From an uncultured delta proteobacterium (GTDB lineage Bacteria > Desulfobacterota > Desulfomonilia > UBA1062): DNA of 64,000 bases. The position numbers were made by a program, and so were the translations under genes. The notes under the pieces are model-generated. The model was not told the DNA's origin. It saw nothing but the letters and a program-made list of their open reading frames with translations, and did no database searches. This document shows positions 13,405-21,865 of the stretch, in pieces; positions within the stretch are counted from its first letter, which is position 1; the number at the start of each line of letters is the position of its first letter. The DNA is taken from contig CAWCTR010000022.1 of the NCBI GenBank assembly GCA_963798485.1, forward strand, positions 32,001 through 96,000, read 5' to 3'.

Positions 13405-14430
13405 TTACCCCAACAGTAACCCACAGGGGTTGTTCACTGCATTACCTGCCTGGAAATAGCCCAGGGCCACGGAAACCGTTCTATGACCTGACAGTTCCAT
13501 TGCGAAGCTCAAAGACATACCCTGACGCCCGGATTCCGTCAGGAAGCCTGACCTCAGCGAATGACCGCTGAAGAGTGAAGGATCAAGACCAGCAAGAGAG
13601 GCTCTTTTCTTGACAATGAGAGCAATTGCTTTGTCGGTGATATCCTCCGTGATCTTCCCACCTTTTGTTATACCCCTGAACAGTCTACCGCTGCTGATCT
13701 GCCCCGCCTTAATCCAAGTATTAAGAGCGATTGCCGCACGCCCAAGAATGGGAAGGTTCAGGCCTGCTGATCCATCTTGATCTGTCTTGCTATGACCCAG
13801 GTGAAATACAAAGCCTCCCTCGACTCTGGTAAGATCTTGCAGCCGTGCGCCTGAGATCTCCGCCCGGCGTCTTCCTCCAGAACTCCACCCCATGCAAAGG
13901 ATTGCTCGATCTCGAATACCAGAAAGAGAATCATCACATGTGGAGAGAAGAAGCTCCAGTAAGTCCCTGGTCAAAGCACTCTTCTTCTTCGGCTTCACAC
14001 CATTCTTAACGGCTCCCCTCTTGGCTTTTGATAGTAACGTGCGGACTTCCTTAGAACGGCAGGGATTGTCTACATGGAGGTTTTCATGGGCTGTACTGAG
14101 GCTAGCGATACGACGAGAGACAGTATTCAGTGAATGAGTCCCCGGCTTTGCCTTTACGCCCATTCCGCATAGGGCCTTATCTGTCTGCTCATCTAATCCT
14201 TGAAGATGATCTACAATGAAGCGAATTACCAAAGGGCAGGGAACTGGAAACCCTACCTCATAGCCTGTAGTAATCAGAGCCCAGGCCATGAAATAGCTGC
14301 AATCCTTGCGATATGCGAGAAGGGAATTCTCAGCCGTGCCATTTCGTAAGATCTCTTTCAGCCTTTGTGCTGTATCCTCAGTAATAAGGTCTCTGCTGCT
14401 TCCCTGATTGATGGTCTCTACATCCTGCAT
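13405..14430 (-). CDS. Second tyrosine recombinase, Cre/TnpS-like resolvase type
   Basis: RDRAILCMGWSSGGRRRAEI, HSKTDQ, FSGHSLRSGF and SGH...GYF motifs; no arm-binding domain. Start placed at ATG 14430. Confidence 0.88.
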   Translation of the reverse strand: MQDVETINQGSSRDLITEDTAQRLKEILRNGTAENSLLAYRKDCSYFMAWALITTGYEVGFPVPCPLVIRFIVDHLQGLDEQTDKALCGMGVKAKPGTHSLNTVSRRIASLSTAHENLHVDNPCRSKEVRTLLSKAKRGAVKNGVKPKKKSALTRDLLELLLSTCDDSLSGIRDRAILCMGWSSGGRRRAEISGARLQDLTRVEGGFVFHLGHSKTDQDGSAGLNLPILGRAAIALNTWIKAGQISSGRLFRGITKGGKITEDITDKAIALIVKKRASLAGLDPSLFSGHSLRSGFLTESGRQGMSLSFAMELSGHRTVSVALGYFQAGNAVNNPCGLLLG

Positions 14431-14456
14431 ATGAGCCCCTTTAATGGTTCCTTTTT

Positions 14457-14485
14457 GCTTCCGATAACCAAAGCTTAATGGAAGC
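14457..14485. promoter_or_regulatory. Putative recombination (res/lox-like) core site
   Basis: GCTTCCGATAA-CCAAAGC-TTAATGGAAGC: 11-bp imperfect inverted arms with a 7-bp spacer, immediately upstream of the Cre-like gene. Confidence 0.65.
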
Positions 14486-14583
14486 AATCAATGATGATTT
14501 ACATACATCATGTAATCTCAAAAGTCAAGAGCGTAGCAATCATGCTTGTTGCTCAATGGGATGATTGATGGTATACCAATGAC

Positions 14584-17121: not shown

Positions 17122-17402
17122 CTAATTACAATTATGAGGAGAAATTATGGGGTTATTTTCTGCTATATTTGGAACACGTGAAGAAAGAACTGTCCGCCCC
17201 GGGTTTAAAAACGTGCAATAATGCCGGGATAAGAGTAAGCAGAAGTAACGGAATAGAAAGCTGCATGTAGTTCATATGATTCCGGAAGGAACTTGAAGAG
17301 TTCCATATAATTCATATAATTCGGGAATTATCCTTATATATCCTATCAATTTCATTACAGTTGTGGTTTGCCTGCCCGAAAGATCAGCAGGAGGTTTGCC
17401 AG

Positions 17403-17822
17403 ATGGAAGTCATCTGTTCGGGCTGCGGGAGGATTTTTGTAAGGAGCCCCAGGCACCCGGACCAGTCTTATTGCTCCAGATCGGAATGCCAGAGGAAGAG
17501 GAAAGCCCGGTGGCAGAAGCAGAAGATGATCACTGATGAGCATTACCGCCTCAATCAGAAGACAAGCCAGGATAAATGGATCAGGAAGAACCCCGGCTAC
17601 TGGAAGAGGTATCGGCAGAGTAAGCCTGAGCAAGCTCAGAGGAACCGCCTGATGCAAATGATAAGGAACAGGCAGAGGAGAAGTCCCCGGCTGATTGCAA
17701 AGATGGACGCGTCAGAAATGAGGAAGGCCCGTCCATATGGGCAGTTTTACCTGGTGCCAGTGATTGCAAAGATGGACGCATTAAAAGTTAACATCTATGG
17801 GATATCAGCGTCTTATCCGTGA
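17403..17822 (+). CDS. Basic Cys4 zinc-finger-like protein inside the IS21 element
   Basis: CSGC-x15-CSRSEC followed by an Arg/Lys/Gln-rich helical region; GGAGG RBS before ATG 17403. Confidence 0.75.
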   Translation: MEVICSGCGRIFVRSPRHPDQSYCSRSECQRKRKARWQKQKMITDEHYRLNQKTSQDKWIRKNPGYWKRYRQSKPEQAQRNRLMQMIRNRQRRSPRLIAKMDASEMRKARPYGQFYLVPVIAKMDALKVNIYGISASYP

Positions 17823-17838
17823 TTGCAAAGAAGGACTC
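17692..17838 (+). repeat. Three 19-bp interspaced direct repeats
   Basis: TGATTGCAAAGATGGACGC at 17692-17710 and 17761-17779; TGATTGCAAAGAAGGACTC at 17820-17838; spacers of 50 and 40 bp. Confidence 0.9.
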
Positions 17839-17890
17839 TATAGTCTTTTTGTCCCCATGTACCTTATCTCTGGGAACAAGGAGGCGTCTC

Positions 17891-18223
17891 ATGAAGAAGA
17901 AAGTGCTCGTCCCGGAGAAGGTAAGGAAGATTGAGGGAGGCTTCAGCTACATACCCCACCGGTTCATTACGGACGGATACCTCGAATCCCTGAATCAGAA
18001 AGAGCTGCTGCTTTACCTGTTCCTGGTGCTGGTTTCGGACCGGAACGGGTTATCATATTACAGCTACGACCGGATATGCACGACGCTGGAGATGGACATC
18101 GAAGAATACCTTACGGCAAGGGATTCCCTGATTAGGCAAAAGCTCATCGCCTTCGACGGTACGCTGTTCCAGGTGCTGGAGCTGCCCTCGATCCGGCATG
18201 AGAGTGAGGCCCGCCATGCTTGA
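17891..18223 (+). CDS. Winged helix-turn-helix protein inside the IS21 element
   Basis: GGFSYIPHRF...ELLLYLFLVLVSDRNGLSYYSYDRICTTL...ARDSLIRQKLI pattern resembles replication-initiator-type wHTH; AGGAGG RBS; stop overlaps the istA start. Confidence 0.75.
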   Translation: MKKKVLVPEKVRKIEGGFSYIPHRFITDGYLESLNQKELLLYLFLVLVSDRNGLSYYSYDRICTTLEMDIEEYLTARDSLIRQKLIAFDGTLFQVLELPSIRHESEARHA

Positions 18224-19688
18224 TCGGAGAATCGTGTTCGAGATCCACCGGCTGAAGAACCTTGGGCTGAAAAACATAAAGATAGCTCAGGATCTGGGTA
18301 TCAACCGGGATACGGTGAGCCTGTACCTCAGGAAGCCCGAGAGACGCCCTGCCGTGAGGAAGAGATCCTCCAAGTTGGACCCGTTCAAGCCCTTTATTGA
18401 CGGCATCCTGGAAGAACATGCCGGTGTGCCTGGAACAGTGATCTTTTTACGTCTGAGAGAGCGGGGTTATACCGGGGGTATCACCATCCTCACGGATTAC
18501 CTCAGGAATAAGAAGAGGGAACCCTCCACACGCAAGGCGTTCATACGCTTCGAGTCCGATCCGGGCAGGCAGATGCAGATCGACTGGGGCCACTTCGGAG
18601 TGCTTGATTACGGGAATGCTAAGAGACGGCTTTCCGCCTTCGTCATAATCGAGTCATACTCCCGGATGATCTACGTAGAGTTTACCCACAGCCAGAAGCA
18701 GGCCCTTCTGCACCGGTGTCTTCTCAATGCCTTTACCTTCTTCGGGGGTACGCCCCAGGAGCTCCTGGTCGACAACATGATCTCGGCAGTAATCGAGAGG
18801 CAGGGGCCGCTGGTGAGGTTCAACGATGCCTTCCTGGACTTCCTTCGGCCGCTGAAGATAAACCCCGTAGCCTGCAACGTGAGGTCTCCTCAGGAGAAGG
18901 GCAAGGTGGAGAGGAGCATCGGTTACCTGCGGCAGAGCTTCTGGCCGCTCAGAGAGATCTCAAGCCTTGCAGATGCCAATGCCCAGGTAAGGCTGTGGCT
19001 TGATGAGGTCGCTAACGTGAGGGTGCACGGTGGCACCGGAGATAAGCCAGCGGAACGCTTCAAGGGCGTGAGGTTAAGGCCGCTGCCCGAGAACCTGCCC
19101 GACTGCTCCGAGACGCTCAGTGTGTTCGTGCATAAGGACTTCGCCGTGAGATTCGACGGCAACGACTATACGGTGCCGCCGTGGACAGTGGGCAGGAGAG
19201 TTCTCCTGAAGGCGGACAACGATGCGGTACGCATCTTCTTCAAGGACAAGGTAATAGCAACGCATCCACGATGCTGGGAGTACAAGAAGAGGATCGAGGC
19301 TCCGGCTCATGCCGAGCAGGTCAGGAGACTGCAGAAAAGGCTCTGGCGGGATCGGGATATAGCCCTGTTCGCCTCTATGGGAGATGAAGCCGCATCTTAT
19401 CTTGAAGCACTGGCGGAAGCATCTCATCCGATCAAGAAGAACATATCGAGGCTGCTTGAGTTGAGGGATGAGTACGGGGTGGAATCATTGCTCTATGCGA
19501 TCAGGAAGGCCCTGCAGTTCAAGGCATACGGTGCTGACTACATCGAGAACATCCTCTACCAGGAGATGACCCCGAAGAGGGTGCACCCGCCGGTGAAGCT
19601 GGGCAATGAAGAACTCAACAGGATACGGCTCAGCATGCCTTCACTCGCTGAGTATGATGCTTATGCGGTCAAGAGAGGTGGCTCATGA
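18216..19688 (+). CDS. istA: IS21 transposase IstA (distinct subgroup)
   Basis: N-terminal HTH; RFESDPGRQMQIDWG, LLVDNM and KGKVERSI motifs. Confidence 0.95.
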   Translation: MLDRRIVFEIHRLKNLGLKNIKIAQDLGINRDTVSLYLRKPERRPAVRKRSSKLDPFKPFIDGILEEHAGVPGTVIFLRLRERGYTGGITILTDYLRNKKREPSTRKAFIRFESDPGRQMQIDWGHFGVLDYGNAKRRLSAFVIIESYSRMIYVEFTHSQKQALLHRCLLNAFTFFGGTPQELLVDNMISAVIERQGPLVRFNDAFLDFLRPLKINPVACNVRSPQEKGKVERSIGYLRQSFWPLREISSLADANAQVRLWLDEVANVRVHGGTGDKPAERFKGVRLRPLPENLPDCSETLSVFVHKDFAVRFDGNDYTVPPWTVGRRVLLKADNDAVRIFFKDKVIATHPRCWEYKKRIEAPAHAEQVRRLQKRLWRDRDIALFASMGDEAASYLEALAEASHPIKKNISRLLELRDEYGVESLLYAIRKALQFKAYGADYIENILYQEMTPKRVHPPVKLGNEELNRIRLSMPSLAEYDAYAVKRGGS

Positions 19689-20437
19689 TGGAAGATGTTA
19701 TCCGGAAATGCAGAGAGTTGAAGCTCAAGGCGTGGGTGGAGGATCTTGAGCGGGTCATGGACGAGGCCTCCAAAAAGAACTCCCCGGTTCAGCGCATCAT
19801 AGAACACCTTCTCGACCTGGAGATCGAGAAGAGGAGGAAGATCAGGATAGACACATGCTTCCGGTTCTCAAGGCTTGATGAGAAGCAGAGCATAGACCAG
19901 TTCGACTTCTCGTTCCATCCTTCCAGAAAAGCCAACAAGGCCAGAATCCTTAACCTTCTCGACCTGGAGTTCATCAGGGAGAGAAAAGACGTCATCCTCA
20001 TCGGCAATCCCGGAGTGGGCAAGTCCTTCATCGCCAAGTGCCTGGCTTACGCCTCGACTCAGGCAGGCATAAAAACGCTGTTCGTATCCACCATGGAGAT
20101 GATCAACCAGCTCATAGCGGCGGAGGGTGACAGGACCTTCCTGAAGAAGCTCCATTACTACCAGTCGTTCGACCTGCTGGTCTGCGACGAGATAGGCTAT
20201 CTCCCCCTCGGGTCCCAGGGTTCCAACTTCTTCTTCCAGGTCATAAGCGCCCGCCATCAGAAGAAGTCCACACTCATCACCACGAATCTGCCGTTTGCCG
20301 AGTGGGGGAACGTATTCGACAACACCACGGTCGCCACGGCTATTGCCGACAGGCTGGTACATAACTCCGAAATCATCATATTCGAGGGGCCAAGCTATCG
20401 AAAAAGAGACAGGAAAGAACAGAAGAAACCTGAATAG
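19685..20437 (+). CDS. istB: IS21 helper ATPase IstB
   Basis: GNPGVGKS, LLVCDEIGY, TTN and TAIADRLVH motifs. Confidence 0.95.
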   Translation: MMEDVIRKCRELKLKAWVEDLERVMDEASKKNSPVQRIIEHLLDLEIEKRRKIRIDTCFRFSRLDEKQSIDQFDFSFHPSRKANKARILNLLDLEFIRERKDVILIGNPGVGKSFIAKCLAYASTQAGIKTLFVSTMEMINQLIAAEGDRTFLKKLHYYQSFDLLVCDEIGYLPLGSQGSNFFFQVISARHQKKSTLITTNLPFAEWGNVFDNTTVATAIADRLVHNSEIIIFEGPSYRKRDRKEQKKPE

Positions 20438-20952
20438 GCCAGAAGGCATAAAGCTCGAAAGCCGTATTACAGAACGGCTTGAAAACCGGCCTGGCCGATC
20501 AAGTGCGGGTTCAGACATTCCCCGCTGTGCATCTTTATGCCCATCGCAACTGCCTGCCGATTTTTATCCCGGTATACTTGCCGGTTTTTAGACCGGCGCA
20601 GACAGAAAGAACATTAAAAACCTGTACAGAGCTTTACAACAAAGCAAAAAGCATGAAACCTGGAAAAAGTGAAAGGGATTATTTAAAGATTGTATTGTTA
20701 ACTAAGCCACCTTTTGATTACCAAGTTGATGGAATCATAAACGGGATTCTTGATGAATGTCAAAATATTGCAGACCTAGCAGAAATGATCTCTTATCATG
20801 GAAAACTAGGCAATGATTTATGGAAAAGTAGGGATAGAAATTTAAAGGGTGGAAGTCTTGAGAATAGGAATAGGAAGTTTTTTACCGAATTTTGGGGGCA
20901 ATAATTAACCTAGTATAACTGCACAACAGTCTAAAATAGCAGGAGATTATAA

Positions 20953-21316: not shown

Positions 21317-21865
21317 CTATCGACCAAGATATTTCTCCGAATGCCCCTTATGTCCATTGAAGTTCTGGATGTATCTGTCCACCAAAGGCTTGTTACCTTT
21401 CATGATCAAGAGATTCTCTGCATTGTTCTCCTCTGCTGCCCTGGTAAAGTTGAATGAACCAGTGATCAAGATGTTCCGATCTATCACCATGATCTTGTTG
21501 TGGGCTATAGCATGGGCAGAGTCGATGTACGTTGGTATTCCAGCATGGGCAACAAAGTCAGCAGAAGAGTACCCTTGAGTCTGCTGGCTTCTATCAAGGA
21601 TCACCTCGATCTTAATTCCTCTTTTCCGGGCATCGACAAGGGCCTTGGCTATTGGTTTACTGGTGAAAGAATATGCCTGGACAAGGATCTCTGACCTTGC
21701 CCCGTTGATCTCTTGTACAATGGCTTCTGTAGCACCGCCATGAGGGGAGAAGTAGGCATCGATAGTGCCAATTGCCTTGAACTGGTCAGCATAGGCCGAT
21801 CCAGGTAGGATTGAGATAATCAGGCAGCAGGTGAGAAGAATGAGTCTGGGTGCGATGTATTTCAT
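21317..21865 (-). CDS. Secreted phospholipase D-family (Nuc-like) endonuclease
   Basis: Signal peptide, YFSP, AYSFTS and a single HKD motif HNKIMVID...TGSFNFT...NAEN. Confidence 0.9.
   Translation of the reverse strand: MKYIAPRLILLTCCLIISILPGSAYADQFKAIGTIDAYFSPHGGATEAIVQEINGARSEILVQAYSFTSKPIAKALVDARKRGIKIEVILDRSQQTQGYSSADFVAHAGIPTYIDSAHAIAHNKIMVIDRNILITGSFNFTRAAEENNAENLLIMKGNKPLVDRYIQNFNGHKGHSEKYLGR

Follow-up and report, generated by a model that had tools for sequence, protein, structure and literature searches.

A nucleotide-conserved repeat array in the first gene of an IS21-family element: candidate operators for a zinc-ribbon protein

Introduction

A stretch of 64,000 nucleotides (nt) from an uncultured delta proteobacterium of the Desulfobacterota (contig CAWCTR010000022.1, positions 32,001 to 96,000; the whole stretch is referred to below as the window) carries a 19-nt motif, TGATTGCAAAGATGGACGC, three times in direct orientation at the 3′ end of a small gene encoding a protein with a zinc ribbon and a basic helix (the Zn protein). 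The locus raises the question of what such an array is for and which molecule reads it. The repeats lie within an insertion sequence (IS) of the IS21 family, a setting that was missed in the initial annotation of this DNA, and their conservation at the nucleotide level is real, striking and widespread. The interpretation that we favour, with a probability of about 0.5, is that they are operator-like DNA sites for the Zn protein, through which the recombination genes downstream would be controlled.

Three repeats in the 3′ end of a zinc-ribbon gene

The gene and its repeats are as follows, in window coordinates.

17403 to 17822, + strand: gene for the zinc-ribbon and basic helical protein, 139 amino acids from its ATG; the 3′ end holds the repeats
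17692 to 17710, + strand: repeat copy 1, in-frame IAKMDA; predicted local distance difference test (pLDDT) below 50 here in the AlphaFold2 (AF2) model
17761 to 17779, + strand: repeat copy 2, in-frame IAKMDA; starts 69 nt after copy 1
17820 to 17838, + strand: repeat copy 3, with AAG for ATG and T for G; starts 59 nt after copy 2

The initial annotation had described a repeat of 19 base pairs (bp) found twice exactly and once with two mismatches, with spacers of 50 and 40 nt, and both the coordinates and a mismatch scan agree with this. TGATTGCAAAGATGGACGC is exact in copies 1 and 2 and differs at two positions in copy 3, and no match beyond these three was found on either strand of the window at up to three mismatches. 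A shuffle control gave 0 matches in 100 shuffles, and the chance expectation is also 0. The repeat unit is slightly longer than 19 nt: a repeat search returned 26-nt copies, the second and third being 88% and 73% identical to the first.

The reading frames were also as originally described. Copies 1 and 2 are in frame with the open reading frame (ORF; 17361/17403-17822) and are translated as IAKMDA preceded by L or V, while the first bases of copy 3, TGA (17820-17822), are the stop codon of the Zn ORF and the copy as a whole lies in another frame. Copy 3 is situated 53-71 nt upstream of the ATG of the next gene, which encodes a winged helix-turn-helix (wHTH) protein.

Conservation of nucleotides rather than of a peptide

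Conservation at the DNA or RNA level had been suggested from the frame of copy 3, and a check of synonymous sites in homologous loci was positive. IAKMDA is nearly invariant at both of its positions when the proteins are aligned, but the DNA is more informative: ATTGCAAAGATGGACGCG recurs almost letter for letter in 52 genome-contig loci, with protein identity to the window down to 36-45%. When 48 distinct Zn ORFs were aligned by codon, 45 and 46 of 47 had ATT as the Ile codon of the two coding repeats; the first Ala codon was GCA in 42 and 46, and the last Ala codon GCG in 40 and 37. Third positions of these Ile and Ala codons carry 1.45-2.0 bits of information, as against 0.00 for R74, 0.03 for R91, 0.01 for G116 and 0.14 for V132, which are invariant residues elsewhere in the protein. 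Codons for Cys, Gln, Asn and Tyr outside the repeats are split roughly evenly. The nucleotides of the motif are under selection, and the free synonymous drift that would accompany amino-acid conservation in a tandem peptide repeat is not seen.

The third copy is usually untranslated and, depending on the locus, it lies in frame 0, 1 or 2 with respect to the Zn ORF. Its IAK frame mostly closes after ~13 codons and continues into the wHTH ORF in just three of the loci compared (the window, L027 and L038). Among 149 representative proteins copy 3 is translated in all three frames as C-terminal tails, of the types IAKKD, DCKDGR/DCKERT and LQRWT/LQRRT. As copy 3 is kept across frames, the constraint is on nucleic acid, and that the repeats are conserved at the nucleotide level, and not merely as a peptide, is strongly supported by these comparisons of sequences. 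The predicted structure is compatible with this. The AF2 model has a pLDDT of 82.8, and the first IAKMDA falls in its sole stretch below 50, which fits the peptide being a by-product of the DNA motif; the second forms the loop of a predicted beta hairpin.

A conserved layout across related loci

The unbiased sample of this family comes from searching 401 genomes of the phylum in six frames with a profile, which gave matches in 31. The layout of the array, which is conserved, was counted in 46 distinct loci with clustered copies, leaving aside a further, degenerate copy that some of them have 21-24 nt before copy 1. Three copies are present in 36 loci and two in 10. Copies 1 and 2 start 69 nt apart in 21 of the 46 and 81 nt apart in 19, the remainder having 59, 72, 78 or 89 nt; for copies 2 and 3 the spacing is 59 nt in 25 of 36, and otherwise 58, 60, 71, 72 or 80 nt. 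In 27 of 36 loci the Zn ORF is terminated by the TGA of copy 3. The consensus of the motif, (T)GATTGCAAAGATGGACGCGT, falls into two parts: its 5′ block, TTGCAAAG, is conserved, and its 3′ block, roughly one turn of the helix further on, varies more.

A de novo 12-mer repeat search that covered 30 profile-found loci missed the arrays of L072 and L084, which have more than one mismatch and were found on a relaxed search. Five further loci (L086, L087, L089, L090 and L095) are N-terminal fragments of the Zn gene with at most one copy. A different repeat layout is found at the same position in L085 (G409:C24, minus strand, ~1765-1860), where the Zn tail is replaced by four tandem units of ~23 nt with the core AAACTGACCA, directly upstream of an IstA-like gene.

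The intervals between the copies had been taken for unrelated spacers, which they are not: they align across the family and encode G-x-F-x-L-V-P (with G116 and P119) and KVNI. An associated proposal, that the locus is a repeat-spacer array giving rise to small RNAs, also fails, since the spacers are conserved coding sequence, there are only two to four copies, and neither an Rfam family, a fold nor a consensus structure was found. Two shorter spacer motifs that had been pointed out, TATGGG (17736-17741 and 17796-17801) and CGTCCAT (17731-17737), are indeed present in the window. They are not conserved in relatives, in which TATGGG is found in spacer 1 at 2 of 46 loci and in spacer 2 at 1 of 36, and GTCCAT in spacer 1 at 1 of 46, and these details are incidental.

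Setting within an IS21-family element

The repeats belong to a complete IS, in which four genes on the same strand, for the Zn-ribbon protein, the wHTH protein, IstA and IstB, fill the element in this order.

17191 to 20604, + strand: complete IS21-family insertion sequence of 3414 bp, with ends TGTCC...GCAGACA and the repeats inside
17183 to 17190, no strand assigned: left target-site duplication, GAAAGAAC; right copy at 20605-20612
17191 to 17242, + strand: left terminal inverted repeat, with a CCGGG-containing unit twice, ~25 nt apart
20554 to 20604, + strand: right terminal inverted repeat, from an inverted-repeat search and comparison with a second copy
17891 to 18223, + strand: small winged-helix gene, 110 amino acids from its ATG, with the ribosome-binding site GGAGG; HTH_36
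18216 to 19688, + strand: transposase IstA; the ORF is open from 18198 and ATG 18216 fits the starts of homologues
19685 to 20437, + strand: AAA+ ATPase IstB (PF01695 IstB_IS21, E 5e-63)

The same genome contains a further copy of the element (G000:C14:180808-184221), 100% identical to the first and with its ends at exactly the same bases. The 8-bp target duplications differ between the copies, being GAAAGAAC in the window and TACCTAGA on both sides of the second copy. The termini contain an imperfect inverted repeat (17202-17242 and 20554-20594) of 41 nt with 76% complementarity. The doubled CCGGG unit, as we read it, may be L1/L2-like. IstA matches the IS21 transposase family NF033546 of NCBIfam (257.9 bits, cut-off 160) and has rve and Mu-transpos_C_2 domains. 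An IS21-type IstA, an adjacent IstB downstream, TG...CA inverted repeats and a short duplication of the target place the element firmly in the IS21 family. The left ends of related elements can be aligned from TGTC onwards, and in each of these elements the first gene, 210-300 nt inside, is the Zn gene; in the window the repeats occupy element positions 502-648, that is, ~500-650 bp inside the left end. The G+C content climbs from ~0.40 outside the element to 0.50-0.60 inside it.

The stop codon of the wHTH gene (TGA, 18221-18223) overlaps codons 2-3 of the likely IstA start at ATG 18216, and matches to IstA in tblastn begin near residue 4-7. A further overlap joins the stop of IstA to the start of IstB (19685-19688). 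These overlaps suggest that wHTH, IstA and IstB form a translationally coupled operon. The wHTH protein matches PF13730 (HTH_36) just above the cut-off (E 7.4e-6; 26.1 bits against 25). In the window copy its frame is open back to GTG 17819, which is only an accident.

The insertion splits a small host ORF, which starts with MGLFSAIFGTREER at 17148 and resumes after the element with LKTCTELYNKAKSMKPGK, running to 20904; the duplication GAAAGAAC falls within it (17148-17190 and 20605-20904). A third, partial relative in the same genome (L003; G000:C25:22771-23478) covers the last 707 bp only, at 90% identity.

One motif with changing partners

The genes that follow the array vary between loci while the motif remains the same. 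It precedes a wHTH gene and then IstA/IstB in the window and in L015-L043. In twelve loci (L044-46, L049-53, L055, L057, L059 and L062) it is followed by a ParB-like protein (ParB_N and HTH_ParB) and then by an IstA that is only 21-29% identical, and the annotated Desulforapulum plasmid pHRM2a has this ParB-like and IstAB order with the same motif. In L027 and L028 it stands before a wHTH gene and three tandem tyrosine recombinases, and in L061 the array is followed by a large serine recombinase and two ParB/RepB genes. The Betaproteobacterial Methylibium plasmid RPME01 carries GATTGCAAAGATGGACGCG twice, 81 nt apart, and a half copy 67 nt further on, in the context of a serine recombinase and ParB/RepB with no annotated wHTH gene. 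In L010 and L094 IstA follows the array directly, with no middle gene, L010 having the three-copy layout with a variant motif. The array thus occurs independently of the type of recombinase. As the motif is constant while the following gene changes, IstA, the wHTH protein and the ParB-like protein are each excluded as its common partner; the Zn-ribbon gene is the only gene that is always present.

The motif itself varies between subfamilies, and all of its copies change in concert. L010 has GATTGTAAAGAACAAC three times. GTCTTGATATACAAG is present three times in L091, whose array motif is of the type CTTGATATACAAG, and a close variant, ATCTTGATATACAAA, three times in L092, both at spacings of 69/69 nt. 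The same spacings are found in L093 and L096, which have GCGTTACAAGAT three times (with one mismatch in two of the L093 copies). L067, L069, L076 and L077 carry CTTGCAAAGATGGAC, and L080 and L094 two copies each of other variants. Homologues of the wHTH protein are also found beside quite different motifs, in L091-L096. The 5′ block TTGCAAAG, also as TTGTAAAG, is common to most subfamilies, and L091-L096 and L094 share only a looser TTG..AAG theme.

At the peptide level two copies are present in 251 of 269 family proteins. Among the 96 proteins in which the first copy is not IAKMD, 62 have an identical second copy, as against 3.2 expected if the copies were independent, a count that is uncorrected for relatedness, uses copy pairs picked by best match and spans at least 16 variant types. 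If the set of sites had co-evolved with a single cognate binder encoded by the element, one would expect, as is seen here, that all copies change together and hardly vary within a subfamily.

Elements of the ParB type are larger units than ordinary IS21 and have a fifth gene after IstB, which is DUF3991/Toprim in L044 (6031-6894) and is annotated as a CHC2 zinc finger (primase-like) in pHRM2a (L097, 7664-8200). Nested insertions are also seen, the module copies of L029 (5841-7556), L033 (6753-7859) and L083 being interrupted by or adjacent to transposases of the DDE_Tnp_1, DUF772 and IS110 types.

The zinc-ribbon protein family

A word-indexed search found 131 homologues of the Zn protein, and a profile search found 2475 clusters (at 50% identity) at E<=1e-3, of which 1373 were at or below 1e-10. 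No Pfam or NCBIfam family matched it above cut-off, and its matches in the ESM Atlas were to unnamed clusters only. In plasmid records it is a 'hypothetical protein' in five of seven cases, and no feature lies under the match in the other two. Both the alignment and the AF2 model contain a conserved basic helix of the RNRxxQxxRNR type, which we take to recall arginine-rich RNA-binding motifs. The prediction of a complex between two molecules of the Zn protein gave a score of 0.03 and a mark of 0.42. The passages returned by full-text literature searches hold no description of a Zn-ribbon/array module.

Promoter-like and RNA signals

Control of downstream genes by the array would depend on where transcription starts, and the window has one candidate.

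17293 to 17320, + strand: sigma-70-like promoter candidate, TTGAAG-16-TATAAT, 10 of 12 positions, upstream of the Zn gene and within CATnTnATTC repeats

This site is a consensus match only, and 2 such sites were found against 1.5 expected in the scanned region. Among 37 loci, a -35/-10-like pair that scored 8 or more out of 12 was present after copy 3 in 12, after copy 1 in 1 and after copy 2 in 4, and at random positions in 7%; under this looser scoring, promoter-like sequences are modestly enriched after copy 3. A TGATAA block is conserved at a fixed distance in one subgroup. Copy 3 sits 50-100 nt upstream of the next ribosome-binding site and not over it.

The CATnTnATTC repeats are short and subterminal (CATATGATTCC, CCATATAATTC and ATATAATTCG; 17262-17345), extending from the left terminal repeat to the Zn gene and overlapping the promoter-like site. 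Repeats of the same kind occur at the same place in related elements, and either the wHTH protein or IstA could bind to them.

RNA signals were also looked for. An Rfam search of the array (E<=10) gave two chance-level rows only (best E 0.49), single-sequence folding gave no signal (z = -0.03), and an RNAalifold consensus over 14 loci reached -3.9 kcal/mol with trivial pairs only. Two other candidates were rejected. A sigma-54 promoter (TGG..N..TTGCA at copy 2) has, by eye, a spacing one base too long; its upstream TGG is coding sequence with free third positions and is absent from copy 3. A frameshift site fails because an A-AAA-AAG-like run is present in only a few copy 3 variants, and because the IAK frame of copy 3 soon shuts in most loci.

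A putative operator array for the zinc-ribbon protein

The basic Zn-finger protein had been named in the initial annotation as a possible binder of the array, and it is the best candidate, whether on DNA or on RNA. We infer the identity of the binding molecule, a DNA and not an RNA target, and the direction of the regulation. A portable accessory module, made up of the Zn-ribbon gene with an array of two to four motif copies in its own 3′ end, would form the first gene of the IS21-family element, directly upstream of the transposition genes. The element-encoded protein would bind the ~20-bp sites on double-stranded DNA and, once bound, would control the transcription that reaches wHTH-istA-istB. 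It could act as a roadblock or repressor of read-through from an upstream or junction promoter, or else regulate the promoter that some subgroups have immediately after copy 3. As the only promoter-like site of the window lies upstream of the Zn gene, roadblock-type negative feedback on wHTH-istAB read-through would fit best here.

The form of the site is in keeping with such a role, as two blocks one helical turn apart in ~20 nt would suit a bipartite reader of successive major grooves. In the 4.3-Mb host genome the motif is confined to the two IS copies, apart from one single match elsewhere with one mismatch, which argues against a host regulon; viral contigs had 0 exact matches to the 19-mer. 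The terminal repeats already account for the sites of IstA, as they do in prototypical IS21, and we count this in favour of operators for the Zn protein.

Several points weigh against this reading. The case for the Zn protein as binder is built on the exclusion of IstA, the wHTH protein and the ParB-like protein and on the concerted changes of the motif, and the co-occurrence of the Zn gene with the motif is partly forced, copies 1 and 2 lying inside the gene. The loci for the codon and frame analysis were found by a peptide pattern containing IAKMD, which selects for the presence of copy 2 and not for codon choice. Structural comparison did not point to a nucleic acid-binding relative: Foldseek gave no match to the Zn protein in the PDB at E<=0.001 (the best was the YacG zinc ribbon, E ~1), VIA-align against 48161 chains gave a best Z of 4.0 and indicated no family, and PDB sequence searches with the Zn profile and the wHTH protein found none at E<0.8. 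After copy 3 in the window the best promoter score is 6 of 12 and a promoter scan found none, nor did it in L022 and L025. The spacings of the sites (58-89 nt) are variable and are not whole helical turns. Lastly, no locus examined has a copy on the antisense strand, which an RNA target would explain equally well.

Comparison with known systems

In IS21 the binding sites of IstA lie within the terminal inverted repeats, two per end, ~23 bp apart and inverted between the ends, as described in passages of one study (PMC10122671). The repeats of the window resemble these L1/L2 and R1/R2 repeats in being short same-strand direct repeats, in several copies, inside an IS21-family element. They differ in lying 500-650 bp inside, 59-69 bp apart and with no right-end copy, and the present motif also occurs in elements without any IstA. 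Terminal IstA sites were rejected as an explanation, as there is no minus-strand copy and no copy near 20554-20604 at up to three mismatches. A tie to the cognate IstA was likewise rejected, the same motif accompanying an IstA that is 21-29% identical, or tyrosine or serine recombinases.

The closest resemblance seems to be to the operator sets of transposon-encoded regulators. In phage Mu, the operator or internal activation sequence (IAS), O1-O3, is bound by the repressor c. As in Mu, three internal sites lie between the left end and Mu-type transposase and ATPase genes, beside a small regulatory gene. The analogy is positional only, and such an arrangement could tie regulation and transposition together. 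A relationship to Mu was found neither in sequence nor in fold; unlike the Mu operator, the window sites are in the coding sequence of the putative regulator itself, and the module is also present in tyrosine- and serine-recombinase elements. The res site of Tn3-family transposons, made up of pairs of inverted half-sites, serves in resolvase autoregulation. There, too, three subsites span ~120-150 bp just upstream of transposon recombination genes, binding being putative in the present case, but IS21 forms have no resolvase, and the repeats here are asymmetric and direct, with two of three copies coding.

The HTH proteins InsA of IS1 and OrfA of the IS3 family act on terminal repeats or the promoter and limit transposase expression. 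The Zn gene is similarly a small first gene of an IS, whose product is a candidate DNA-binding protein; it differs in being a zinc ribbon of an unnamed family whose candidate sites are internal and self-embedded. Plasmid iterons are recognised by wHTH Rep proteins and are spaced by ~22 nt. The window shares with them direct repeats adjoining a winged-helix gene, but spacings are 59-81 nt, the motif is independent of the wHTH gene, and nothing indicates a replication origin. By analogy, then, the repeats are most like the operator sets of Mu (c and O1-O3), Tn3 (resolvase and res) and IS1 (InsA), from which they are set apart by a period of ~23 codons inside the coding sequence of the regulator, an unnamed Zn-ribbon family and an association with three recombinase classes.

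Alternative explanations

The strongest rival to DNA operators is an element acting at the RNA level, which we consider possible though rather unlikely. The motif would provide single-stranded sites in a polycistronic mRNA for the arginine-rich Zn-ribbon protein, affecting mRNA stability, termination or downstream translation, possibly co-translationally and hence in cis. The orientation of every copy and the lack of phasing with the DNA helix both speak for RNA, as do the conserved basic helix of the Zn protein and the frequent use of the TGA inside copy 3 as the Zn stop codon. Against this, the array has no stable or conserved structure and no Rfam family, and copy 3 lies well upstream of the next ribosome-binding site. 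A two-block site of ~20 nt would also seem better suited to recognition in a duplex.

A broader reading is that the module is a self-contained, portable 'cis-lock'. The Zn protein would be captured while it is being made by sites in its own gene, on DNA or nascent RNA, so that each copy gates only its own recombinase genes; elements with DDE (IS21), tyrosine (three-in-a-row) and serine recombinases, across many phyla, would have acquired the cassette in separate events. We regard this as a doubtful, speculative extension.

Improbable, though still worth weighing, is a part in the architecture of transposition, in which an internal enhancer-like array, comparable with the Mu operator/IAS, would assemble or orient the transposition complex. 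The position of the array between the left end and the Mu-like IstA/IstB genes favours this, as do its three sites over ~150 bp, and IS21 transpososomes trap supercoil crossings, according to passages of PMC10122671. However, the same array accompanies DDE, tyrosine and serine recombinases, whose synaptic complexes are unrelated and for which generic regulation is easier to picture, and there is no motif copy near the right end.

It had also been proposed that the wHTH (HTH_36) protein encoded downstream uses the repeats as its iterons or operators. In the window and in most loci of class A the array is indeed followed by a wHTH gene, and direct repeats beside such a gene recall pairs of iterons and Rep proteins. 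We now think this unlikely, and more so than a role in architecture, because the identical motif persists with a ParB-like gene instead (the 12 loci and pHRM2a) or before a serine recombinase with no annotated wHTH gene, the three-copy layout of L010 has a variant motif and no middle gene, and wHTH homologues occur with other motifs in L091-L096.

Sites for a host factor common to many phyla are very unlikely. The 19-nt motif is identical in metagenome-assembled genomes labelled with many phyla and in Betaproteobacterial plasmids, as a shared factor would predict, but subfamilies within the same phylum use other motifs in all three copies and the motif has no wider use in the host genome. Least credible of all is a purely repeated peptide IAKMDA with a secondary likeness in DNA, for although I98, A99, K100, D102, A122 and D125 are invariant in 31 aligned proteins, the fixed synonymous positions, the conservation of copy 3 out of frame and the location of the first IAKMDA in a low-confidence, apparently disordered stretch of the model all oppose it; it is refuted for copy 3, and copies 1 and 2 may have a peptide role besides their nucleotide role.

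Neighbouring genes

Two neighbouring ORFs were judged from their translations only. The one at 13405-14487 (- strand) has the look of a tyrosine recombinase, with an HSLRSGF...GH motif region, and that at 21317-21865 (- strand) of an HKD/phospholipase-D-type nuclease, with HNKIMVID.

Significance

IS21 is a structural model system for ATPase-coupled transposition, as presented in two accounts (PMC10122671; PMC11208146). As far as the passages returned by literature searches show, a large branch of the family has an extra first gene that has not been described. The protein family that it encodes comprises at least 2475 clusters at 50% identity and has no Pfam or NCBIfam name, and ~20 bp inside its coding sequence are under near-absolute nucleotide selection across phyla and three recombinase classes. 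If the Zn protein does not bind the array, this conservation calls for another, at least equally interesting explanation. If it does, this would be a compact regulator that carries its operators in the gene encoding it, and would add a new level to the control of transposition. Should the 'cis-lock' prove to be true, it would represent a general means of controlling bacterial mobile DNA that had so far gone unrecognised.

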